From Naegleria gruberi (taxonomy: Eukaryota), in the NCBI GenBank assembly GCA_000004985.1, contig GG738914.1: a DNA stretch of 64,000 nucleotides; one strand, written 5' to 3'. Shown piece after piece: positions 1,734 through 53,700 of the stretch. A program made the position numbers and the translations under genes. The notes below the pieces were generated by a model that saw only the letters and a program-made list of their open reading frames with translations, ran no database searches and had not been told where the DNA came from. Position 1 is the stretch's first letter, and every line of letters starts with the position of its first letter.

Positions 1734-4700
1734 GAACCAAATGCGAAACACAATTGTGTGGAGGTAAATTACCAACAGATCCGAAAGTTTGTGGAGGAAG
1801 GGGTGTATGTTATAATGGAGATTGTGCGTGCACTTTGGATGAAAGATTTGGTTCAACCCAACACGTTGGACTCACTTGTGAAATACCAGTTTGTTTCCCA
1901 CTCCTTGTAGATCCGTACAGACGTGAATACGAATGTGGAGGACATGGCACATGTGTAGAAACCAATATCTGTGATTGCCATGTTGGATATGGTGGTTATG
2001 ATTGTACCAAGACTGGTTTCAAATGTAGTGGAATCAATGCAACAAATTCCAAGGTGTGTTCTGGGCGTGGACAATGCATCGATCAAGATTATTGTCTTTG
2101 TCAATCGGATGATTATGGTGGAGTTGACTGTTCGACACCCAAGTGCAATGGTTTTCTAGCAACAGAAGAGGGAGTGTGCAATGGACGAGGTCAATGTCTG
2201 CAACCAAATAATTGTACTTGTACTTCTGGATTTAGTGGAACAAATTGTGAACTTGATGCCAGTAATCAACAAGTTGAGAGAATAGTGACTTGTTATGGAG
2301 TGCTTTCAAATGATTCTGTGAATGTATGCTCTGGTAAAGGATCTTGTTTTGGAAATGATTATTGCAGCTGTCAGATAGGTTATACAGGTGCTCGGTGTAA
2401 TGAAACATTTTGCTTTGGAGTTTTACAAACAAGTGACAAGACATGCTCTGGAAATGGTGTTTGTTCATCATTGAATACTTGTTCATGCAATAATAATTCA
2501 CCCTTTTTGAGATATGTGGGTGAGGAGTGTGGAATTCTTCAATGTCGAGGAGTTGACTTGGAATTTTACAACTCCACCGATGTGAGAGTATGTTCAGGGA
2601 GAGGAGCATGCATAGATCATTTAGGATGTGTTTGTAATGAGGGTTATTATGGAGAATCTTGCCAAATCTCTTCATGTTTTTCAGTTTTATCAAATAGTTC
2701 ACAAGTTTGTAATGGTCATGGAATTTGTCAAGATTTGGACAATTGTGAATGTTATTCAAATTCTACAAATGGATACTGGTATGGAGATGATTGTTCGGTG
2801 TGTGCTAATTCCTATGAAGGAAATCTCTGTAATCTAAAGAAATCTTGCAACTCTTCCACTACTTGTATGAGCTTGGGTGAGTGTTCAAACAATGATTTAT
2901 GTCGTTGTGAAAGCTCTTTTGATGGAGAGAATTGTGAAGAATGTGCTCTTGGTTATTATGGCCCTTTGTGTGAAATATTTTGCTCTGCAGAATTGAATTG
3001 TTCTTCGAATGGAGTGTGCTCAAGAGATGGATTTTGTGATTGCTATCAATCGAGAGAATTGGGTTATTTCCAATCAGAAAACTGTTCCAAATGCTCGCCA
3101 GGATACTTTGGTAATGACTGCTCAACGTTTGTTGGATCAAATTTCACTTTTAACAATTATGGAAATGAGCTAATTTTGAGAATAATTCCTCCTCTCAATA
3201 TTGACAAGATTCAAACTGAAAATGAATGCAAAACTTTCTTCCCCCCTAGATCTAGATTAAAACTGGGTGGAGAATTCACTTGTCATTGGATAGACGTTTA
3301 CAACGGATATCTTTCAGTGCTGATTCCTCAAAACGCAACAATTATACCAGGAGATTTCTTAGAGTTTAATGTTTATTCATTTGAACAATATGCAAAACCA
3401 GCTCAGTATCGAAATATCACGTCATTTGCAAGTGATGTGAACAAGATTATCACGCAACATGCTGACATTGAAACTGCAACAAGTTTCCAGAAAGGAACAA
3501 CCTTAACCATCAGGGGAAAGAGTTTGATAAGTATTGAAAGAGAAAGAGAATTGTATTATGAGTGGAGTATTGTAAATTCTAACCCTACTATGAATTCACT
3601 AAATAGTCATGTCAGCTCTCAGTCAGGATGGGGTAAATCAGTCATTTCCATTCCAAGTTCTTTCACATCAAGTGTGAACCTTATCAATCTCAAACTAAGA
3701 ATTGCAAATTATTATCAACAATTTGGATCTGAAAAGCAAGTTATCTTACAAGATTTGTCAACTGCCAGCTCATCAGTCAATCAAGTACAAATCAAAATTA
3801 CAACAGCAAGAAATAGATTATACATACTCAATGATATACTTCCTTACAAAATCAATTGCAAATTGACCGTAAACGGTGTGCAAGTCACCAACATTATATC
3901 GAGCGGATACTCAATTGAATGGAGTCTAAGTCCTGATCTTGGAATAGGTTTAGCAAATCTCACCCTTATTACATTGAAACCATATACAAGTGACAATAGC
4001 ACTGTTTTGTTTACATCTGAAGATACTCTGTATTATGATTTCTACAATGTACCTTATACAGTCTTTAATGTGTCAGCTGTTGTTAAGAAAAATGGAACTG
4101 TCGTCTCTAGTGACAGTTTACAAATTCATTTCAATTTATTTGAGCAAAAGCAGTATGGTATTACACTGTCTCGAACACCTACTGATATGACCATTGATGC
4201 TCAATATCCAGCTGTCATATCATTATCCATTCCACCAGAAGTAACAATTTTATCAGTTGAGTGGGCATGTTTTGCCTATCACATGTATAAGGGAAAGTGT
4301 CACGATCAATATCAAGCAATTATTGCTCAAAGTGGAAACAAGACAAGAATTGAACTTCCAAAGAGTGCCATTTTCCTTCATTATAACACTGTAAAATTCT
4401 CTGTAAAAATTACAACCACTTCAGGAGTTGAGTATCGAGATACAAGTTTTTCACCAAGTGCCTCCTATCAAATTCCATATGCAGTCACAGAGACTGCCTT
4501 CTTCAGTTCTGGCTATAGAGGACCATTTAGATTGTATTCTCTTCATGGAACTAAATTCTCTTTCGAATATCGTTTATTTGATAGCACAGAACCATCCATA
4601 GCATCAGCAGGTGATGCTCCAGCCACAACTGGAACAGTTACAGCATATAACGTTTACAGTAACAATCAAATTACATTAAGTGCCGCCAATGGAATAACTA

Positions 4701-5308
4701 CCTACACAGACACTTACTACAGTGGTCCAAATTTGGCTAAATTAGTTAAAGTTGACATGACAAAATTTTCATCTCCAATTTATTTCCAAGTGAAATTTAC
4801 TTACAAAACTTTGGAGATGAATGTTAGACAATATTTAATTATTGGAACAGTTCCAAGAGAAAGGGTGGATATTAATGTGAAAGTTGTTCCATTCGTTCAA
4901 AATCCAGAGTTCAGCAATTACATTTTTCAAGTTTCGAATGATGTAGCAAATTCATTCTATGAAGTAACTGTTTCTCTTTCTCTGAGATATAAGAATGACA
5001 CTAGCATGTCCTACTCATTTGGTTCTCTGTCCATGTTTAGTTTAAATAGAGAGGTAAAAATTGCCTTTCCACCTCTCTTGGATTCGTTTACAATCTATAA
5101 GAAAGTAACCTATTATACGGATTCCTGGGTTGGGTACGAACATGAAGAATCACTTTATATCTACGAAGAAGAAGTTGCCTCATTCCCTGCCTCTCCACAC
5201 AGTTCTGATCCATTCATTAAGGCGATGCAATCAAAAATTAAGATTGCATTCGAAAAGGGATCGAATTATCTTTCTTCAGCTTCATCCATTATGAATTCAT
5301 ACTATTAA
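1734..5308 (+). CDS. large secreted or surface protein: N-terminal tenascin-type EGF repeats followed by about 750 aa of beta-rich Ser/Thr/Asn-rich domain
   Basis: There are about 13 tandem copies of the Cx3-5GxCx4-6CxCxxGYxGxxC module (for example CSGRGQCIDQDYCLCQSDDYGGVDC). The track ORF 1754..5308 begins at a TTG, and the reading frame is open back to the 3' splice site at 1733. Confidence 0.7.
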
Positions 5309-6752: not shown

Positions 6753-6959
6753 AAAAGAATATTTTACGGTTTTATGTTACTCTTTAGGATGGAAGGAAAT
6801 ATTGAGATACCTTCCAATAAATTTTCTTGATTACTTAATTTTTTGTTAAGAAAAAATACCCGCCAAATATTCCTTCCAGTTTTGCACAGAATTCCAACTT
6901 TTATTGGAAAATTAAAAAAGATTAAAATAAATTTGAAAAATGTTTATTTTTTATTAAAA

Positions 6960-9223
6960 AAATTTAAACGTTTATTAATCGAATGAACCCGACGGGTTCG
7001 TCCATTTGGAACGTCTTATTGAATTTTTAAGATTTTGTTGTATTGTTTTTGTACTCTTCCTCCAAAAAGTGAGAGGCCTCCTTGTATCTTGGGCCATTGT
7101 TCTTTGATAATACCTTGAATAGGTTCTGTCAGAATACCAAAGATATTCAGTTGGAATGAGTTTGGTGTTAATGTTTCTGTCCTCTCTGTGCTTAGTACTG
7201 GTTCGAGATTGGTATTTTTTTTGATTTCTTCAATCATCCAGTTTCTAGCTGAATTCATTTCTGGGCATTCTATGAAGAGGTGTTCTGTGTCAAGGTTTTT
7301 GTTACATGTTGGGCATTGTGGGTTGTCTACTATGAGGCTTCTTAAGTGTCCATTTATCATGAGCCTCCAGATTGAGTATTTGTGAGTTGGGGTGGTATGT
7401 TCTTTGAGGTACTTGAGATTTGTTCTGTTGATGAGTTCGGATGTTCCTTGATCGTAGAGCTTTTCACTAAGTACTCCTTTGATTCTACTTTTCCAAACTT
7501 TTTTCGAATTGGTGATAATTAATTGCCCTTGAGTTAGTAGATGTTGGGGTGTAATTCGATGTCCTATTCTTGAGGCTTGTTTGGCTTTCTTATCAGCGTA
7601 GTTATTTCCATCTGTTATTCCTGTATGAGCTTTTGTCCATTCGATGGATGCTTGAAGTTTTTTAGTGCTGATGAGGTTGGTAATTTCATCTTTGATTTGC
7701 TTAAATTGACCTTTGTAATTTGTGTTGTTAATTATTTTGACTGCTATTTCACTGTCAGTGAGTACCTTTGCATTGCTGTTTGGTGGTATGATGTGTAGTG
7801 CTGTTGTAATTGCTGATAATTCAGCCATGTTGTTTGAGTGGTATGAGTGGAGCTTGTATTTGTATCCTTTTGTAAATTCGTTGTTCTGAATGATTACACT
7901 GAATCCTACTTTGTTTTCTGATTTGGATCCATCAGTCCATATTGTGAATTCTGAGTAGGAGTATTGTTCATCTTTTTCCTTTTCCAGAAGTTGATGATTG
8001 GTGTTACATTTTGTTGTGGTAAGTTTGTGTTGTTTTAGGATGTAGTGGAATTTCTCAAATATGTTGTGTAGTTTTGTTTTGTTCGTGTTACAGTTATTAA
8101 TTCCGTACTGTACTGCTTCTCTGACAAGTGGGTTACTTGAGTGGAATTTGTTGATTAAGTTATTGCAAAGGATTGAGTTGGCTATGTATTCGAGGTTTGG
8201 AATTTCTAGTCCTTTTCTTTCGAATTGTGCATACATTATGGATGGTTTTACCTTTGCATCGATCTTCAGTGATCTTTTTAGGTTACCCCTTATTGTTGAG
8301 TCAATTGTTTGTAGGCGAGGATTGGAAATTGAATTTCCTCCTGCTAGATGGATAAAACTACTAATTGTCTTGCCCATTATGATTCTTTTGAGATTTTCTG
8401 GTTCTATCAAATGGATTGGAAGTATTTTTAGTATTTGTGTTACTCTAGCTTCTCTTTTGTCAATTTCTTTTGTGAAGAGATGGTCTTCTGTGATGTAGTT
8501 TCCTAATGTTCTTTGATTGGTTTGTCTTGGTATTAACGTATCGTCAAGCTTAACTGTGAAGTCTTTAAGGGCTATTCTTTCCGGTGTGACAGAAGTTATT
8601 GATTTAGAAGCATTGATTTTCATTTTGAGATTCCCTATCCATTTGTTCAGTTGTTTGAGTTTGGTATTGTGTTTCTTGTTGGGTTGTGTTACTAATGAGC
8701 AGTCATCAGCAAAATTAAGAGTTCCTATTTCTTCAATTTTGAATGATGGTGTGACAGGTATTTTCCAATTCTCGATTTGGTAATCTATTATAATTTGGGT
8801 GATTGTGTTATACATTAGTGGTGCTAGTGGACATCCTTGTGGAACACCTCTTGTTTTGGTGAGAGGGTTAATTAATATGTCATTCCATTCTATATATGCT
8901 TTGTGATTGCTGTATGCATTGATTATGAATGTAGTGAGATTTGGTGGGAATTTACAATGTTTCATAGCTAATCTAAGGACACAATGTTCTACACCGTCAT
9001 ATGCATTTTCTATGTCCAAGTTGGTGATTACAAATGCATTTGTTTTCTTGTATTTGACTCTTAATGCTTGGATTACTAGAATATGGTTGTTAACTTCTCT
9101 GTTGGATGTGAATGCTTGTTGTCTAATATTGATGTTATCTTTTGCCCATTTACCTATTTTCCTTGCTATGATGTTAAATAATAGTCTATATAGTGTACTA
9201 TTTTTTATTAAAAAAATGATCAA
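6960..9223 (-). mobile_element. 5'-truncated non-LTR (LINE-like) retrotransposon copy
   Basis: A single 735-aa ORF encodes RT, RNase H and a Cys-motif domain. There is no endonuclease or ORF1 upstream, and a 3' UTR-like stretch with a hairpin follows the stop codon. Confidence 0.65.
7016..9223 (-). CDS. LINE ORF2 fragment: reverse transcriptase, RNase H, and a C-terminal CCHC-like zinc motif
   Basis: RT motifs are present (NLDIENAYDGVEH, LNFADDCSLV). An RNase H domain follows (TIWTDGS ... MAELSAITTALH ... NNYADKKAKQA), then a C-terminal Cx2C...H...C motif (CPTCNKNLDTEHLFIECP). Confidence 0.75.
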   Translation of the reverse strand: MIIFLIKNSTLYRLLFNIIARKIGKWAKDNINIRQQAFTSNREVNNHILVIQALRVKYKKTNAFVITNLDIENAYDGVEHCVLRLAMKHCKFPPNLTTFIINAYSNHKAYIEWNDILINPLTKTRGVPQGCPLAPLMYNTITQIIIDYQIENWKIPVTPSFKIEEIGTLNFADDCSLVTQPNKKHNTKLKQLNKWIGNLKMKINASKSITSVTPERIALKDFTVKLDDTLIPRQTNQRTLGNYITEDHLFTKEIDKREARVTQILKILPIHLIEPENLKRIIMGKTISSFIHLAGGNSISNPRLQTIDSTIRGNLKRSLKIDAKVKPSIMYAQFERKGLEIPNLEYIANSILCNNLINKFHSSNPLVREAVQYGINNCNTNKTKLHNIFEKFHYILKQHKLTTTKCNTNHQLLEKEKDEQYSYSEFTIWTDGSKSENKVGFSVIIQNNEFTKGYKYKLHSYHSNNMAELSAITTALHIIPPNSNAKVLTDSEIAVKIINNTNYKGQFKQIKDEITNLISTKKLQASIEWTKAHTGITDGNNYADKKAKQASRIGHRITPQHLLTQGQLIITNSKKVWKSRIKGVLSEKLYDQGTSELINRTNLKYLKEHTTPTHKYSIWRLMINGHLRSLIVDNPQCPTCNKNLDTEHLFIECPEMNSARNWMIEEIKKNTNLEPVLSTERTETLTPNSFQLNIFGILTEPIQGIIKEQWPKIQGGLSLFGGRVQKQYNKILKIQ

Positions 9224-10271
9224 TCAACAAGACAACATTTCTGCATCACCTTCTCTCACTAGCAATAACAATCATCAGAGACCAATCAGCACACCCGATG
9301 ATCGTCCAACAACTGTTAACATTCCATCACAAATTAGTCAAAATTCTAACCGACCAGTGGTTGCCCCAATTTCTTCCCAACAGCACAAGGATACAAAGTA
9401 TATTATGGTGGCTGATATTGCCTCTGCAAAGATTTTTGCAAATATTATGCACTGTATTTGTTCCGATAAGAAGAAGGAAGATGCTTGGGTGATTTGCGAA
9501 ATTATGGAGGAAGGAATTAAATTCTACATTCAAGACAAATCAATTCAAGGAGTTGCTAGTATGAAGAGGGATATTTTCCAAAATTATATTTATAATGGTG
9601 CAGCACATGCAAAATATTCATTCGAAATTAATGTACAAATCTTGATTCAATGTTTGATTTTATACGGAGCTAATTCATCACAAGGAACAATTGTGAAACT
9701 TTGTTATCCTGGTGTTGAAAATACATTATCATTACTTTTGGGAGAAGAACGTGTAGTAACAGATTGTAATATTAAGATTAGGCATGGAGCAGAACCTTTA
9801 GATTTTGAATTCAAAGGTTCTGAAGAAACATGTAAAATTGTTTTAAAGAGTGAAGTTATGACTGATGCTCTTTCAGAAATTGATTGGCTTGCAAAGACTA
9901 TGGAAATAGGTGTTGAAATGGATGTCCAAGAGCAAGGTGAGGACCAAGTTGCCATAACTTTACCAAAAGGAAAATTATTTTTCAAAACAGTTGATAATGT
10001 GATTGGATCTATGGATATTATTATTCCAAGTACAAATGAGGGTGTATGTTCCTTTGAGGTAAATCACACCCAAATGAGCGTATTTAAATTATCTCATATT
10101 CAACAAGCTTTAAAGGCTTTACCACATTCTGATAGAGTTTGTATTAGAATGAATGAACAAGGTTTACTACAATGGCAATTCATGGTTCGTGCAACTGAAC
10201 CAATAACCTATGTAGATTACACAATGCTACCAATTGATGCAGAATTAGAAGATACAGATTCCACCTTCTAA
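9216..10271 (+). CDS. RAD1: cell-cycle checkpoint protein Rad1 (9-1-1 clamp subunit) homolog
   Basis: The translation aligns by eye to human RAD1 across the protein. KYIMVADIASAKIFANIMHCI resembles YSLVASLDNVRNLSTILKAIHF; LKSEVMTDALSEIDW resembles LQSEGLREAFSELDM; VCIRMNEQGLLQWQFMVRATEPITYVDYTMLP resembles VSIRTDNRGFLSLQYMIRNEDGQICFVEYYCCP. The first in-frame ATG is at 9216 and is followed by an N/S/P-rich N-terminal extension. Confidence 0.7.
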   Translation: MINQQDNISASPSLTSNNNHQRPISTPDDRPTTVNIPSQISQNSNRPVVAPISSQQHKDTKYIMVADIASAKIFANIMHCICSDKKKEDAWVICEIMEEGIKFYIQDKSIQGVASMKRDIFQNYIYNGAAHAKYSFEINVQILIQCLILYGANSSQGTIVKLCYPGVENTLSLLLGEERVVTDCNIKIRHGAEPLDFEFKGSEETCKIVLKSEVMTDALSEIDWLAKTMEIGVEMDVQEQGEDQVAITLPKGKLFFKTVDNVIGSMDIIIPSTNEGVCSFEVNHTQMSVFKLSHIQQALKALPHSDRVCIRMNEQGLLQWQFMVRATEPITYVDYTMLPIDAELEDTDSTF

Positions 10272-10834
10272 AATTGGAAATTAATGAATTATATCATTTA
10301 GATCATGTACGAATTAGTATGAAAATATCTTTTTTCAGCAACCATCTTTTTATTTTCATTGATAATGTCTAAATGAAAGGTGAAAGTAGAATTGAAATTG
10401 AATTGTGCAAACAATAGCAGTAGAAGCATTAATAGAATAGTATCATCAAACACACTACAGCAAACAATAAATAGTATGATAAATAAATAAACATCTAAAA
10501 AGTATTGGTTAATATTTCCACACAATGGTTGGTAATTCTTTTGTTGATAAAATGAATTGGAGAATAGGAAAGAAATTATTGGATGAAAAGAGTAGTAGTT
10601 GGGAATTTTGGTAGTGGTGGTATTAAAATTACTTCCAAACTTGTTGGAATTTTGGATGAAATATCGATTATTGGAGGATGAAAATAGGGAAGTGAACGGA
10701 AAGGTGGAGGAATTATGGTGTTGATTTGCAGAGTCGTGTATTCTCTCCTCTAATTGTTGTTGTTGATGATAATGATGACAATTATTGTCATCCATAAAAT
10801 TATTAGAGAGTGTAAACTTTCGCCTTTGCGTGAT

Positions 10835-11341
10835 TCAACAGATAATGCAAGACTTCTTTTGCTTGTAGAATTTGTCAATAAAATCAAGTTGGTTCTTGTT
10901 GATGGCTCCTCTTCTCTTCTTTCGGAGGAATTGAACTGCTTCTAATCCTGTCATGTTGCATCGTTTAATAAGTGCCAAAGCTACAAGAATAGGAGCTCTA
11001 CCAAGACCAGCAACACAGTGAACAGCAATACAAGGAAGATCATCGGAATCTCCTTCTTTTGGTGGGAATACTTTATCAACAAGATCCAACCAATCTTGGA
11101 TAACGTGCTTTGGTGGAGAAGAACCATCATCAAAAGCCCAATCAAAGAATTTAATACCTGCTCGTTCAACTACTTCCTTATCATAGGTTGCTTGGCAAAC
11201 TCTGACACAGTGAGTCACATTATTTTGTTTAAATTCCTTAACGTAAAGATGAATATTAGTATCGGATGGAGCATCAGAAATTAAAAACTTGATACCACCA
11301 TGTTCGATGAGAGATGGAGCGTTTGTGAGAGTTACTGCCAT
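10835..11341 (-). CDS. PRL-family (PTP4A-like) protein tyrosine phosphatase with a C-terminal CAAX prenylation box
   Basis: The P-loop VHCVAGLGRAP matches the PRL consensus, and the alignment to human PRL-1 holds throughout (WAFDDGSSPP resembles WPFDDGAPP; VQFLRKKRRGAINKNQL resembles VQFIRQKRRGAFNSKQL). The protein ends in CIIC. It is a single exon with an ATG start. Confidence 0.85.
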   Translation of the reverse strand: MAVTLTNAPSLIEHGGIKFLISDAPSDTNIHLYVKEFKQNNVTHCVRVCQATYDKEVVERAGIKFFDWAFDDGSSPPKHVIQDWLDLVDKVFPPKEGDSDDLPCIAVHCVAGLGRAPILVALALIKRCNMTGLEAVQFLRKKRRGAINKNQLDFIDKFYKQKKSCIIC

Positions 11342-20254: not shown

Positions 20255-21478
20255 ATGCAACTTGATGATCTTCCAGATGAGAATATTTCTTTTATTTTTC
20301 AATATTTAAATACAAGTACCATTCTACTGCAATGTTCTCTGGTTTCTCATCGATGGTTAATTATCGCATCGGAGGTAGATCTTCATGTTGTCATTCAAAA
20401 TAATTTCAGGAAGGCTAATTGTTTTCTTTCTCTTCTAGATGATCAAATGTTGCAGGTGAAGAGTTTGAGTTTGAGTAAAAATCATCTCAATACAAAACAC
20501 GTAGAAATGATAATCTGTTCAAAATATTTGCAAAATATTTCTGATTTGGATTTGAGTTATAATAATATTGGAACTGATTACTTGTGTAGGAGAATGATGA
20601 AATGTTTGGGGAATTTGAGAGCTTTGAATTTGAGATATAGTGGATTTGGTGGAATTTTGATTAAATTGGATGGGTTTTCGTCCAATTCAACTCTTAGCAA
20701 TTTGACAAGTTTGGATTTGAGTTATGAGAGAGTTGAGGAGCATGGTGCAGAATATATTTCGAATAATTTAAAAAAGTTACAGATATTAAAGTTGAGAGGA
20801 TGCTTTATTCAAGATGTGGGTGTTAAGCATATTTGCAATTTGGAACAATTGACCTCTTTGGATTTGAGTTTTAATAACATTGGAAGGGAAGGTTGTGCCT
20901 TTATCAGTAATGGTAAATTAATGAAAAATTTGAAAACATTAGATATCAGTAACAACTTTTTATTTAGTCATTTGGCACTGCCTTTGTTATTCTCTGGTGA
21001 AAATGGTAAAAATTTGACAAGTTTGAATATGAGTGGTCTTTACATAAGTATGGGTAATGAACTTGTCAGTTTGAACAATTTAAGAGAATTGAATTTATCA
21101 AAGTGTAAATCAATGGGATGTTTAAACCGTTTAAACTCGTGTGATTTACTTTCGAAATTGACCATTTTGAATATTGATTGTAACATGATTGGAAATGTAA
21201 ACTTGAACAAACTTCAAAAATGTAAAAATCTGAAAGAATTGAATATTTCAAGAAATAACATTACATGCTCTGGTGCCTATGAATTAAGTCAATTTGATCT
21301 ACCTAATTTAACCACTCTCATACTAGATGGAAATGATATCCAATATTATGGAATCCTTTCAATATTGAATAGCAAGACACTTCCAAATCCTAAACAACTT
21401 CTTTCCAAAAACAAATCAGCTGTAATTCAAGGATTGTTAGCCACCGTCATGAAAACATCCCTTGTTGAAGATCAATAG
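20255..21478 (+). CDS. F-box / leucine-rich-repeat protein
   Basis: An N-terminal F-box-like motif (LPDENISFIFQYLNTSTILLQCSLVSHRW) is followed by LDLSxNNIG-type LRRs. The start codon is an ATG. Confidence 0.7.
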   Translation: MQLDDLPDENISFIFQYLNTSTILLQCSLVSHRWLIIASEVDLHVVIQNNFRKANCFLSLLDDQMLQVKSLSLSKNHLNTKHVEMIICSKYLQNISDLDLSYNNIGTDYLCRRMMKCLGNLRALNLRYSGFGGILIKLDGFSSNSTLSNLTSLDLSYERVEEHGAEYISNNLKKLQILKLRGCFIQDVGVKHICNLEQLTSLDLSFNNIGREGCAFISNGKLMKNLKTLDISNNFLFSHLALPLLFSGENGKNLTSLNMSGLYISMGNELVSLNNLRELNLSKCKSMGCLNRLNSCDLLSKLTILNIDCNMIGNVNLNKLQKCKNLKELNISRNNITCSGAYELSQFDLPNLTTLILDGNDIQYYGILSILNSKTLPNPKQLLSKNKSAVIQGLLATVMKTSLVEDQ

Positions 21479-30500: not shown

Positions 30501-31973
30501 TTGCCCATCATATTGATAGCCATTTGTTCCTGAAATATTGCCCGCAATTAGTTTTAAAGATTTTGTGTAAATATTAAACTTGTTAATAAAGCAATTAGCA
30601 TTACCATTAGCGTCTGCTACAGAATTAACAATATATAAATCCTCCCATGTTTTTTTATCAGTAACTACTTCAGAAATTGGCATTTCAAAAGTTATTAAGG
30701 GATTCAAAAGTCCAGTCCTTTCAGACAATCTGAATATTGATTTTTTATCAGTTGAAAATAGGATAATGTCTCCATTTCTATATGTTTTGATTGGTTTCAG
30801 TCCTAATACAAACTGAAAACCGTATGAGTAAGTCGAATACGAAAAATCAATTGCTAATTTTCCAACAATAGTTTTGATTTTTGAATCCTGATTGGCCTTT
30901 ACAATATTCCCACTGAATGAAATGTAATAAGTAAAGTAATTCTCCTTTGGAACGATTTTCATTCCCTTAATAGAAGGTAATGAAACATTTTGCAAAGTTT
31001 GGTCAGTTCTTGTAAAATCGAGAGACTCTCCAACTCCAAACAATAACACAATTCTTCCATCTTTTGAAATCTTTCTAATAATGGTATCATCACTGAAATA
31101 AATTTCACTATCAATAACAGCCATCAACTTGGGAGAATTAAGACATGCGTTTGTGGCAAACCCGTCATAAGTTACGTTAAACGTGCAACTGTCTTTCAAA
31201 CCAGATACCTTGTAAAATCTACCATTCTCAATCTTCATAATTACATATATATTATTAATAGAAATAGTAAAATAAACGGTACCATTGCTTGCAAGAATGG
31301 AAGTTGGTGTCTTAATGTCGGTTGAACTCGCAATGGATCCATCAACAGGTATGGTCGTTGATACAGCATTAGATCCTGCAATTGTAACAATACTTCCTGT
31401 TGTATTCAGCTTTCTAATCTTGTTGACTTCAATAGTGTACACGTTACCCATTTCATCGTAGGTAAAGCTAACTACTGAGAATTGAAAAGAAGCAACTGTT
31501 CTCACTCTATTATCAACCTTGGAAATTACTCTCAATTTAAACGAGGAATCAACATAGGTACATTCTCCTGTTAAGGATGTTGTAAGATACTTGACCGTGG
31601 CCGAAACTTGTGTAGTATCAACTCCATCACTTGATGATGTTCCCTTACCCAAGTAAATACTCACAGTCTTATTTGCCTCGAAATATCTTCTTAAAATTGT
31701 TCCATCACGGAAAACAACGTCTCCACCCTCCATAATACATATTTCGGTGGGTGTTATTGATACCAAGTTATAAGGAAGTGGTGAGGCTGTTTTAAAATCA
31801 ACAGGATTTACAATTGCTTTCTTCGTAGACAAGTAATTCGGAATAGCCTCAACCATACAAGTCTGAAGAAGAAGAATACAACAACAACACAAACTTGCAG
31901 CCACCGCAACAAGAAGCGCCTTAAAAAACAATGGTGATGGCGCACAAAGGGAAGGAGCCTTAATCATCATCAT
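24561..31973 (-). CDS. giant type-I surface protein (2470 aa): signal peptide, beta-rich N-terminal region, tenascin-type EGF repeats, an Asn/Ser/Thr-rich sequon tract, a second EGF cluster, a long beta-rich stalk, and a C-terminal TM with a short basic tail
   Basis: The ORF begins MMMIKAPSLC with a hydrophobic leader. Two EGF clusters share the Cx3GxCx5CxCxxxYxGxxC module. The C-terminus reads LFGLLVVCCCGIMIVIISILIVRCLRRKKR. Confidence 0.75.
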   Translation of the reverse strand: MMMIKAPSLCAPSPLFFKALLVAVAASLCCCCILLLQTCMVEAIPNYLSTKKAIVNPVDFKTASPLPYNLVSITPTEICIMEGGDVVFRDGTILRRYFEANKTVSIYLGKGTSSSDGVDTTQVSATVKYLTTSLTGECTYVDSSFKLRVISKVDNRVRTVASFQFSVVSFTYDEMGNVYTIEVNKIRKLNTTGSIVTIAGSNAVSTTIPVDGSIASSTDIKTPTSILASNGTVYFTISINNIYVIMKIENGRFYKVSGLKDSCTFNVTYDGFATNACLNSPKLMAVIDSEIYFSDDTIIRKISKDGRIVLLFGVGESLDFTRTDQTLQNVSLPSIKGMKIVPKENYFTYYISFSGNIVKANQDSKIKTIVGKLAIDFSYSTYSYGFQFVLGLKPIKTYRNGDIILFSTDKKSIFRLSERTGLLNPLITFEMPISEVVTDKKTWEDLYIVNSVADANGNANCFINKFNIYTKSLKLIAGNISGTNGYQYDGQSSLDISIINLMYIQYLNNSIYYSDNKFRIIQVSLSDLTIKCVLGVGYSQGMSLSGLNSDAMNVEFDSLHQITSNPKNGNLILRTKYLISYIDNQNKVRPLVGKKEDSPDFTDFPAPADDIVTGLEDQPMGFHPISNNLFFVYKNYLLEYVNSTFVRKVLNTTNTIDDITFRKSTGHIYYSSGYSIFDYDPQTDSNLKVLTESGTMYLCMMSDDTTIAYSVKDSYRLTKYNLVTRLTTSISLSLIPPPGTFTYTFLVQAILCTENNEILVAFERKGGVSTAYGILQVSSSNIFKPIYEMPFKPLSITLRNGTLIISSNQGVYKTNTTLIAGKAKKIPIENHPISTNGWTIDSNGDIYFVKLSNRNLIKKAVRADGFVIDVIGNGTVDSETAFTTSSNSHLSDFVGGSYYGEVVPYFWYSPSEDKYFTNSNLKSFSIGTSSFTKDEDILFSNSNGIYIYNVVCERDRYGYCLQNFTCFGIFYNNDASCSGRGDCTLNDFCECYDNYYAEDCSLTTCFGIMSNQSNVCNGHGECVDFNSCKCKDNHYGEDCSVISCFDFPSTDANVCNGNGTCVGKDLCDCNQNYFGVNCNETAGNNQNLNVSNFGNDTSISNNSSANNYTSFDNSTNSNLTIFNNSSLDLNNSTNQNSSILSNTTNVDNSSNFTNLSNNTAFNSTSNCTIGVYCNNTIGSSNGTVSNNRSVDNSTFTNTTNFNNSYNNATTGIDNNSTSISNTTVDASNSTTVWNNTINNVTNSNVNGTNLNNTMSTNSTVYNNNNTIANSTVFNSTISNNSTLNKNSTSSVNSTINNSTSSNVNNSTTSTTNSTSTISTSPPISFCFGHEANDSRVCSGHGNCFSNDSCQCNSLYEGVSCENKKVSCFGILQSNAIVCSGHGSCLSEDYCQCESGYFGSRCFLSVSSQPKFNSLGNTLEFHFNTSIVISNGVLECSKVVNEKSFSQLGKNPSCYWKDGNFFIELGGQYSIIPYSNISLIINGLDIIYTPIPRYISLLLLPSNNPVKPIINISFKNTISPCEQIAIDASGSYCGDLKPVKFIWSIESSPDSNFNLQQVSFGDFNSTLTSNSISISGSYVFGLIAESSLSGARSEKKFIEIIKSIVPNPTLSLLTNKMSLTNIEKGSLPIIVKKSIELPSCYFDNREFDYIWEKLSGPSTINYQIDSNNDLVITEILSNGDESYSFGVKAISKFNPNSNATLLIPLSSKSRDLLLNIYVSSLNTNQADVIVENSDPDNIDSVSDSWNWSCFDRVSNQACQDSTISNILTHYAITKSSTCQIPKGSLSKVSLTLSIQKGLRSISKSLDIDYPNTELLIPPVISLISVYPNRFKVLKDEVLSLQLSVILGGDEKQTDEEDMIREWSINGNSLTNSMISKMSTQPSKSSSLILSLLELLEDGEYEIEFQVSDRRNNLSSRFSYKFKIVKSPKSCLCYINPSYGYALETEFSFSCPGCQNAEQSIDFVFGFIDDKSGTKIPLYNLGEKFASYLPSPFSSNVMDTFVDIVDLDTGASVEFIKSVEVKTPTASSMLQIKNKVKVWQLKAASLLPSDSAKLVFNSATISRTSELMISNLITSRKLAENEAGIAYELRDEMLDSMILGLNQRNPLELISDIHFRVYSFGLESLASNCDSINSLPFEKLFNLTEKLMVMAAKNTKFRVAEGVEKLCSSLFNNIIRLTGDSKLQDTYRVLDSIKIFSNVLMRSYYVGQKDYSVNLSHYSTVSLLSYKNQQVKKLMTSDGGNSSLVFDAIDTSVSNRLVLEASFFSVTDHLGVYYSLKQVSNVQTIKISDLEEIETKTTFKSLSKIVSVEKKFTADITFSFNLGNEYNFSNINVKNTFESTSDNIEQRTSVFSTIECVLIDNIISLTSNHTCSTTISAPVIYCNCSKSVTSLIVVEKTISNSTITQLEHETSISPRTSSNLALYGLFGLFGLLVVCCCGIMIVIISILIVRCLRRKKRTFEKSKPQDVELMTV
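27990..28720 (-). repeat. low-complexity Asn/Ser/Thr-rich coding tract (dense N-x-S/T sequons) within the 2470-aa gene
   Basis: The translation here is dominated by NxS/NxT tripeptides (NSTNSNLTIFNNSSLDLNNSTNQNSS...). This tract also generates spurious ORFs on both strands in the track. Confidence 0.6.
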
Positions 31974-50700: not shown

Positions 50701-53700
50701 AAATAGAATGATGTAGAAACAGCAATAATATCAGTTTGCATAGACCCATACGTGATGGAAATACTTGGTGAAATCAGCATTGGTGAATATTTGCCTTGTG
50801 CGTATGGTATTGAAGGATTGTACTGAATTGTCATTTGGCAATTAGAGTCAATTACTATTGGGAAAGTTGAAACTAGAATTTTGTCTTCATAATTTTTGAG
50901 TGTTGCACTTTGAATAGCCAAACAATTGAATTTGGCCTTATTTAGCTTGAAATTGTTAATTGTAAACGATTGGGTACTTTGCACAAAGAGCGCACCACTG
51001 GAATCCAAAGTGTCAATAGTAATGGAGTCACTGGCTATTGGCAATAAATAAGATGAAGTAATAGGTATTCTAGAAATTCCATTAAATACATAAATTCCAA
51101 AATCAGCATAGAAAATTCCATTTTCCAAAACTGGATTATTCAATGTAATATCAATGCTACACACAAAAGTTGATAAAGCAGGAGAATATGTAGCAGTAAA
51201 GAATTGTCCATTCAAGAGGCAGTAATAATTCCAAGTTGCTTCTAAAGTATTATTCTTTGTTGTTTGTACGGATAGTTGCCCACTAACACGACCTGCAATT
51301 GACTGAAGAATATTAGGTGAAGTGGTAATTATACTTTCCTTTACACCATGATAGTAAACAACATTATAAATTGGAATTGACTTGGTCATAACACTTTCCT
51401 TCACTCTAATAACAACTGAGTTTTGTCTTGGAGATGTTACTGGAGGGAATGAAACAGTACAATTGAGAGAATTACCATTAAACGAAGCACTTGAAATACT
51501 TCCATCTACGGAAACACAAGAGTACGAATATTGGGCACCAGAGAATTTGAATTTGAGATAAATTGACAATGTAGAAGAGCCAACATCATTAGTAACAAAA
51601 AATGGTGAACCAATAACATTAGTTGAACTAATCATATCAAAACCAAGTGACTTTCCAACACGGTAGGTTCCTATGTTTTGTCTGGATGCTGTTCTTCCCT
51701 TATATTTGAGCTCCAATACGTAGGAACCAGCATCTGTTGCATTGATATTGCCACACGTTACCAGAGAGCTGGTTTGAGAAACAGCTTGAATACTCTGTAC
51801 ATTAGCACTGAATTGATTGAGAGTACCATCAGAGGTAGCCAAACATTGAAAATTAGATACATTAGAAGGCAACACATTTTGAATAAGCAAGCTGAATATC
51901 AACCCACTAGATGATCCAGTATTTTCAATAGTGAAACTAGGATACTGATATGAAATAGTTGCATCGCTGTTAAGAACAATGAAATCCAAAGAATAATCCA
52001 ATATTTTGGCCTTAATTATTCCAAAACTATTTGATAGCAATCCTGCAGGAATTGGAGCCACTACCCTAGTTGGATATCCTGGATAGGCAGTGTAATATGA
52101 GAGTGCTGTCCATGAAGAGCCTAAAAGCAAGTAGACTTGGCTTCTCAAAGAAAAAGGCAAGTCATACTTGATTTCTACTGAATCAGAGTCACTAGAAGGC
52201 ATTATATTGCTATCAGATCTGAGTTTCAAATCACCCACATAGGTATTAGTGAAATTGAACAGTGAAAAAGTTGCTGATTGTCTATCTTTGTAAGCCAATG
52301 TGAGATTTCCATTGTTGCTAATATTCATAGCTGTTGAATTGAATGAGAAAGTACAATTAAAAGTGATATCAAATACATTTTCATCAGTATCAGAAGTTAC
52401 TCGAGAGGCATAAAGGAATACTCCCTTAAATGATACTGAAGATGAACTGGTTCTGTAAATACAATGTAAAGCATTTTGGTAAGTGGTAATACTAACTGAA
52501 GTAGCATCGAATTTTGATCTAACAGTAAACTGAAGAGTGGAATTATTTGGATCTATGATAGCATACAAGTTATCTGGAAACTTTGAAGTCACCTGAGAGG
52601 GTGATGGAACTCCAAGTTCACAATTTCTTCCAGTTCTCAAATTTAAACAAGCACAATCGTTGGTTACAGGTGTACCAGAAATGAAACACGAACAATATCC
52701 GAAATCACCACAAATACCTCTTCCTGAACATGCATTTTCGTCTTTCTCAAGCAGTCCATAACAAATTTTCTGGTCACAGAATTGGCCACCGAAAAAAGTG
52801 TTTGTACAGACGCACACATCTTTTGCAACACAATTACCTCTAAGATTGCAAACAGTTCCATCAATGGAGAGAATACCATTACAAGTAGTGAATTTACACG
52901 CATTATCGGCAGGGTCATTATAAAAATTAGGGTTACAAACACAAAGATTGTCACCAGGGAGCTTTTCTGTTCCAGGAACAACAGTACAGTTACCATTAAC
53001 ACATCCATTAATCATACCATGACAATAAACATCTTGGCAATAATTACCACCAAACTTGTAACCATACTGGCATGTGCACTTCTCTGGTTCATTACAGCTA
53101 CCTCTTCCATTACACACTAAAGGATCATCAAATGGCAATCCACCACACATTCTTTTACAAGTAGATCCTCCATATCCAGTATCACAAAATTCACAATTAG
53201 TGCCATAAGAATGAGGAGTAGTACAGGAGCAAGTATCAAACGAAACACATGAGCCTCTCCCTGAGCAAACACTAGAATTCTTACCAGATACGCCAAAGCA
53301 AAAGGTACTTGGTGTAGCTAGTATTCCAATTTCGTTATCAGTTAACACTCTGTCGAAAATAACAAATTCGTCGATTGCTCCAGTCACCTTATCGAGGAAG
53401 AATGTTACATTTCCTGATCCTGGAGATCTCAAATTTCCAATAGTGAGAGTACCATTTGGTGGAATTTTTTGGCCCTTCTTGTAATCCAGTTTGAAATCCT
53501 TCAATGTTCCATCAATATAGAGTTTGAGAAGTCCACTATCAGAACTCCAAGATACTGCAACATGACGCCAAGTTTTACTATTGATGTTTACAGTTGTATC
53601 CCATGAATTAGAGGCAGTAAACAAATATCTCAATACGTGTGGTTCATTAATAGAAACTTTCAAGCTTCGATAGTCAGTAAGAACGAATCCAAAATATGTA

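Follow-up and report, generated by a model that had tools for sequence, protein, structure and literature searches.

A recent, polymorphic insertion of a 5'-truncated LINE immediately before the Rad1 start codon of Naegleria gruberi

In a 64,000-nucleotide stretch of the Naegleria gruberi genome (the window; GenBank assembly GCA_000004985.1, contig GG738914.1), the gene for the DNA-damage checkpoint protein Rad1 lies next to a minus-strand open reading frame (ORF) with the domains of a long interspersed nuclear element (LINE), which raises the question of whether the DNA upstream of Rad1 was built from retroelement sequence or was interrupted by it. An earlier, sequence-only reading of the window had posed these two alternatives and left them side by side. 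We compared the locus with a full-length relative of the element, with an allele that lacks it, and with the orthologous loci of other Naegleria; we find a dead-on-arrival LINE whose insertion at the start of a gene is recent and polymorphic, an event of an ordinary kind and well resolved.

The mechanically called ORF (7016-9223, minus strand, 735 aa) gave Pfam matches to reverse transcriptase (RT; RVT_1, residues 9-211) and RNase H, and no Pfam match to an endonuclease domain. A database search revealed 99% identity of the whole 735-aa query to P0001, a 1227-aa protein on the contig L001 (5573 bp; ENA assembly ERZ929261 of run ERR1078381), and a second assembly of the same run contains L003 (5166 bp), whose start corresponds to L001 position 413. 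L001 carries two reading frames: ORF1 of 462 aa, with no nucleic-acid-binding domain recognizable in Pfam, and ORF2 of 1227 aa, with Exo_endo_phos at 27-221, RVT_1 at 482-703 (E=5e-26), and RNase_H at 917-1043. The endonuclease match, N-terminal to the RT, passes narrowly (E=1.9e-5; 25.0 bits vs. a cut-off of 24.5); related proteins also contain PF03372/PF14529. By blastn, the window LINE aligns with L001 3331-5573 without gaps (2227/2243 identical), and because this gapless alignment falls on the 3' part of a 5.57-kb full-length copy, the window copy is truly 5'-truncated, as the sequence-only reading had proposed. The copy lacks ORF1, the endonuclease, and the beginning of the RT domain and so cannot move by itself; its 727 remaining LINE codons contain neither a stop nor a frameshift. 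The description of a minus-strand RT/RNase H/CCHC-like ORF lacking an endonuclease and ORF1 likewise held under Pfam, motif search, and comparison with L001.

The family has the features of non-long-terminal-repeat (non-LTR) retrotransposons with an apurinic/apyrimidinic endonuclease (APE): an FADD-type RT, an APE domain, no terminal repeats (none of at least 25 nt, direct or inverted, in the full-length contig L003), and copies with a common 3' end, varying 5' ends, and a target-site duplication. An RNase H lies downstream of the RT, as in the I, Tad1, and Ingi-like clades. Judged by its sequence, the window element is a 5'-truncated copy of a two-ORF, APE-endonuclease non-LTR retrotransposon. 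The reference annotation lists part of it as a gene, NAEGRDRAFT_53468 ("ribonuclease H", 453 aa; 7016-8377, minus strand), which corresponds exactly to the last 453 residues of the LINE ORF. Other annotated N. gruberi LINE fragments share the same C-terminal end, and NAEGRDRAFT_53468 is evidently a dead LINE fragment and not a host gene. Fragments of the same LINE family also make up two further N. gruberi models, NAEGRDRAFT_47408 and NAEGRDRAFT_48056.

The ends of the insertion are marked by the 19-mer TATTTTTTATTAAAAAAAT, which occurs exactly twice in the window (Table 1), each time directly outside the limit of LINE homology; the chance expectation is none, even with one mismatch allowed. 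It was found by exact search, the automated repeat finder having missed it, presumably for its low complexity. LINE-derived sequence stops at 9198, and the adjoining base 9199 shows 1 nt microhomology with the LINE. The proximal copy ends in the A and T that open the Rad1 ATG (9216-9218), and because the duplication re-creates the leader together with these two bases, Rad1 keeps an intact reading frame. The first 8 nt of the repeat, 6956-6963 (minus strand ATTTTTTT), coincide with the element's own T-run terminus and may, from this match, belong to its tail rather than to the target; for this reason 6945-6955 constitutes the unambiguous, 11-bp target-site duplication.

The empty site is found in L002, a 1887-bp contig from the same ENA assembly as L001, which encodes an identical Rad1 protein and contains a single copy of the repeat and no LINE. 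The 76 bases upstream of its ATG match window 6889-6962 at 92% and are not LINE, while the remainder matches window 9201-11026 at 99.2%. After removal of the element and one repeat copy, the window is collinear with L002, with few substitutions and two small indels in A/T runs; the Rad1 coding sequences (CDS) of the filled and empty alleles differ at four synonymous and no non-synonymous positions. L002 evidently represents the pre-integration state. Since it carries an empty site, the insertion is recent and polymorphic rather than fixed, and the comparison places it after the divergence of the two N. gruberi sequences. The near-identity to a full-length copy, together with the empty allele, further indicates very recent activity of this LINE family in N. 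gruberi. Of the two alternatives posed at the outset, the collinear empty allele upholds "interrupted". At the orthologous loci of two further Naegleria (L005 and L006), Rad1 retains its downstream neighbors and the LINE is likewise absent; between Rad1 and the phosphatase gene lies a small ORF whose sequence shows no conservation in other Naegleria.

Rad1 itself matches the profile PF02144 of the Rad1/Rec1/Rad17 family (9-1-1 clamp subunit) over its full length (E=2.1e-43; profile positions 2-257/257), and the annotated protein is 100% identical over 351 aa to the translation from ATG 9216; orthologues were found in N. lovaniensis and Willaertia magna. UniProt names the protein (P0034) "Uncharacterized protein AM38", a label without relation to DNA repair, where Pfam recognizes the Rad1 clamp subunit. 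Alignment of four orthologues reveals a conserved block, PSQISQ.SNR...SQQ..KYIMVADI, N-terminal of the next methionine, Met64, and translation must therefore start 5' of that residue. The empty allele has an in-frame stop 9 bases upstream of the ATG, and A7-A8 stands directly before the ATG in Rad1 orthologues too. Together, the orthologue block, the stop in the empty allele, and the orthologue A-runs mark ATG 9216 as evidently the true Rad1 start.

The claim that the LINE abuts the true Rad1 start is therefore upheld by both the annotated protein and the N-terminal block of the four orthologues. Of the predicted distance of about 100 bp from the ATG, the adjacency stands and the figure does not: it is 17 bp. 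The supposed overlap of the two open frames is not biological, since the ORF merely runs on through 9199-9217 and 6 bases of Rad1, and its first eight codons are target sequence and Rad1 antisense, not LINE. The sequence-only reading had also considered that full-length copies might show 9100-9223 to lie outside the element; 9100-9198 is element and 9199-9223 is not. The target-site duplication whose search it had suggested was found within the exact 19-bp repeat at both element ends.

Table 1. Coordinates of features at the Rad1 locus in the window
Feature	Position	Strand	Description and basis
Rad1 CDS	9216..10271	+	single exon, 351 aa, NAEGRDRAFT_53469; Pfam, annotated protein, orthologue alignment
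Native Rad1 upstream DNA	6753..6944	+	intergenic, after leucine-rich-repeat (LRR) ORF
5'-truncated LINE copy (partial ORF2 + 3' untranslated region, UTR)	6964..9198	-	= L001 3332-5566, 99.3% identical; blastn, Pfam
Intact remainder of LINE ORF2	7019..9198	-	residues ~501-1227 of 1227; stop codon 7016-7018
RT domain, N-terminal part missing	8591..9199	-	Pfam RVT_1 E=1.5e-21, profile 16-192/205; FADD box
RNase H domain	7571..7951	-	Pfam RNase_H E=4e-17, residues 425-551 of 735-aa ORF
C-terminal CX2CX7HX4C zinc-knuckle-like motif (CPTCNKNLDTEHLFIEC)	7265..7315	-	regular-expression match
3' UTR hairpin GAACCC-GTC-GGGTTC	6985..6999	-	stem kept in L007 family (69% identical, loop GTT)
Distal 19-bp repeat copy	6945..6963	.	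+ strand TATTTTTTATTAAAAAAAT; joined to LINE 3' end
Proximal 19-bp repeat copy	9199..9217	.	between LINE 5' end and Rad1

How the element came to lie at this site is suggested by its 3' terminus. Five insertions belonging to four diverged Naegleria-type families (window, L001/L003, L007, L032, and L033) can be aligned at their 3' ends, where they share AATAAA...TTTAAAT followed by six or seven T, after which the sequences diverge immediately; none of the four families has a poly(A) tail. The termini compared were window 6956-7015 (minus strand), L007 1922-1985, L032 3290-3349, and L033 2700-2750, and the motif before the T-run reads TTTAAAT or TTTACAT; for L007 and L032, the comparison covers the 3' junction only. 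The two closest families have in common a 3' UTR hairpin, GAACCC-GTY-GGGTTC, and the fold surpasses shuffled sequence to a modest degree only (z about -2). In the empty allele, the A-run was already there before the insertion. The T-run ends common to the four families suggest that the element RNA could have primed on the A-run before the Rad1 ATG, and we consider it highly probable that target-primed reverse transcription placed the copy in the A/T-rich leader just ahead of the Rad1 start codon. A nick in the + strand (Rad1 sense) would fall at or within ...AAAAAAAT^G, and the A-run would then anneal to the terminal U-run of the LINE RNA and serve as primer for cDNA synthesis. Synthesis or joining would stop early, at ORF2 codon ~501, and a staggered second nick would leave 11 to 19 bp duplicated. 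The anatomy of the insertion shows the products directly; the steps themselves are inferred from it.

Three points weigh against a recent LINE insertion that interrupted the Rad1 leader, at least in the form given here. Run ERR1078381 is filed as a metagenome, and its empty allele could come from another strain or from the other haplotype of the same strain. The T-run may be element tail or target, the duplication measuring 11 or 19 bp accordingly; the assignment is blurred because no second insertion of the same family with both junctions was obtained. Finally, the Rad1 transcription start site (TSS) might fall within the 17 retained bases, in which case the promoter and not the 5' UTR would have been displaced, but this is unlikely. 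A more radical objection is that an assembly artefact put LINE and Rad1 side by side, repeats having induced a misjoin in the reference genome, as the presence of the locus without the element in an independent short-read assembly might seem to indicate. We regard this as barely credible: a misjoin would produce neither an exact 19-bp target duplication at both element ends nor a clean truncation point with 1 nt microhomology, and the empty contig differs from the window by ~0.8% throughout, which identifies it as a different allele and not the same DNA assembled otherwise.

The remaining alternatives concern what the insertion did to Rad1. Only 17 bp of native sequence is left upstream of the ATG, and the native upstream DNA (6753-6944) has been displaced 2254 bp further away, beyond the antisense LINE fragment. 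This shift would favor silencing or crippling of the allele, through displacement of the promoter or spread of heterochromatin, with the insertion persisting by virtue of another intact allele, and such an allele exists. In N. gruberi, repeats are marked by 5-methylcytosine (5mC), H3K9me3, and H3K27me3, methylation is heavier on younger insertions, and most methylated genes are silent (PMC12344493), which points in the same direction. We hold silencing to be a serious possibility, if not quite the expected outcome; it is a statement about consequence, compatible with a recent insertion and not opposed to it, and with only 4 synonymous and 0 non-synonymous CDS differences there has been too little time for decay to show. 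Co-option is the reverse proposition, in which the antisense strand of the fragment would act as Rad1 promoter or 5' UTR, or the RT-RNase H frame (NAEGRDRAFT_53468) would serve the host. It could appeal to the 727 intact codons, to the annotation of the last 453 aa as a gene, and to the need of Rad1 for a source of transcription where 17 native bases are left. However, the 99.3% identity to a full-length, active-looking copy explains the intact frame by youth, the fragment is absent from another N. gruberi sequence and from the orthologous loci of other Naegleria, and the N-terminal part of the RT is missing; co-option therefore seems very improbable to us.

For the recently interrupted allele, our guess is that transcription is reduced or re-initiated, and that the intact allele buffers this effect if the two share a cell. 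The Rad1 frame is open for 103 codons upstream into the antisense LINE (8907-9215, plus strand) and contains in-frame ATGs, of which that at 8925 comes first; were transcription to begin within the LINE, the product could be a Rad1 with a predicted hydrophobic N-terminal extension. In the standard laboratory strain, the Rad1 allele of the reference retains just 17 bp of its native upstream DNA in place, and this allele structure is relevant to expression, promoter, and checkpoint studies, as well as to constructs that use Naegleria "upstream regions". Literature searches returned no description of the LINE family, of project PRJEB11402, or of Naegleria transcription start sites.

Whether the position at a start codon is accidental is a further question. 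In the window, 8/44 A6+T sites, or ~18%, are ATGs that open at least 100 codons, and five or more A stand immediately ahead of the first ATG in about a quarter of long ORFs. Many long ORFs, at 20255, 36463, 38137, 39548, 55794, and 59670 on the plus strand, have 6-9 A next to the ATG, suggesting that start codons in this genome have a strongly A-rich context. Because A-runs commonly precede ATGs, an A-run-seeking element would often strike start codons. The LINE in L001 is preceded at its 5' end by CAT + T10, belonging to a divergent open frame of 132 codons, in the same geometry as in the window, and the LINE 3' end is followed by ATTTTTT; the start-codon geometry is thus present at both same-family loci with a visible 5' junction (window copy and L001). 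The 132-codon ORF has no database homologue, and its ATG is a putative start. We tentatively propose, while thinking it rather doubtful, that Naegleria-type LINEs with an oligo(U) end prime on genomic A-runs followed by T and are thereby biased to translation starts, in antisense orientation and with the ATG restored; we offer this as a hypothesis since it draws on two loci and the ORF flanking L001 lacks homologues. If true, A-run/U-tail priming would mirror the poly(A)/T-run rule of L1 and would explain a tendency toward start-codon insertion in a compact genome.

Beyond the Naegleria-like sequences, relatives of the LINE protein reach at most 27-30% identity, over parts of the protein, and the closest non-Naegleria database matches have a Pfam architecture identical to that of LINE ORF2. 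Among solved structures, the nearest to the RT are R2-type non-LTR proteins (E about 1e-13), with no match to L1 ORF2p at E<=0.01. The "jockey-like" names attached to database matches are automatic and unreliable, and the cluster member P0042 was rejected as a LINE copy, being a spurious 49-aa protein with no relation to the LINE. In the JGI metagenomes, the exact 31-nt 3' UTR pattern had zero matches, and a profile scan found distant RNase H-level relatives only (22-40% identity), of no use for junctions. The 5' leader of the full-length LINE is apparently very short, with the repeat boundary at ~409-413 (L001 396-428; L003 1-20), and would leave little room for an upstream internal promoter; an in-frame ATG in A7 context lies at L001 426, 24 nt before the called ORF1 start.

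Elsewhere, the window has a G+C content of ~34% and contains other very long ORFs, among them one at 1754-5308 (plus strand) for a predicted 1184-aa cysteine-rich EGF-like repeat protein and two on the minus strand, of 2470 aa at 31973 and 3815 aa at 53150.

Compared with known systems, the insertion most resembles the 5'-truncated, "dead on arrival" LINE-1 copies generated by target-primed reverse transcription: the full-length element has two ORFs and an APE endonuclease, the truncation is internal and arbitrary with 1 nt microhomology, the target-site duplication is 11 to 19 bp, the insertion is polymorphic, and the target sequence can pair with the 3' end of the element RNA. Unlike LINE-1, however, the Naegleria element has no poly(A) and ends in ...AATAAACGTTTAAAT plus a T-run, so that its partner in the target is an A-run where that of L1 is a T-run; it also has an RNase H domain after the RT, and its RT finds R2-type proteins and no L1 ORF2p among the solved structures. 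Non-LTR clades that combine APE, RT, and RNase H are I, Tad1, LOA, and the Ingi/L1Tc group. The Naegleria element shares with them the order APE, RT, RNase H, and C-terminal Cys/His motif, a likeness by domain order and not by phylogeny, and it differs from them in that its ORF1 lacks a Pfam-recognizable nucleic-acid-binding domain. "Stringent-type" LINEs, such as eel UnaL2 of the L2 type, recognize a stem-loop in their 3' UTR. Like these, the Naegleria families keep a 3' UTR hairpin and a short terminal sequence across diverged members; in contrast to them, the hairpin folds with a z of about -2 and its recognition by the RT is inferred.

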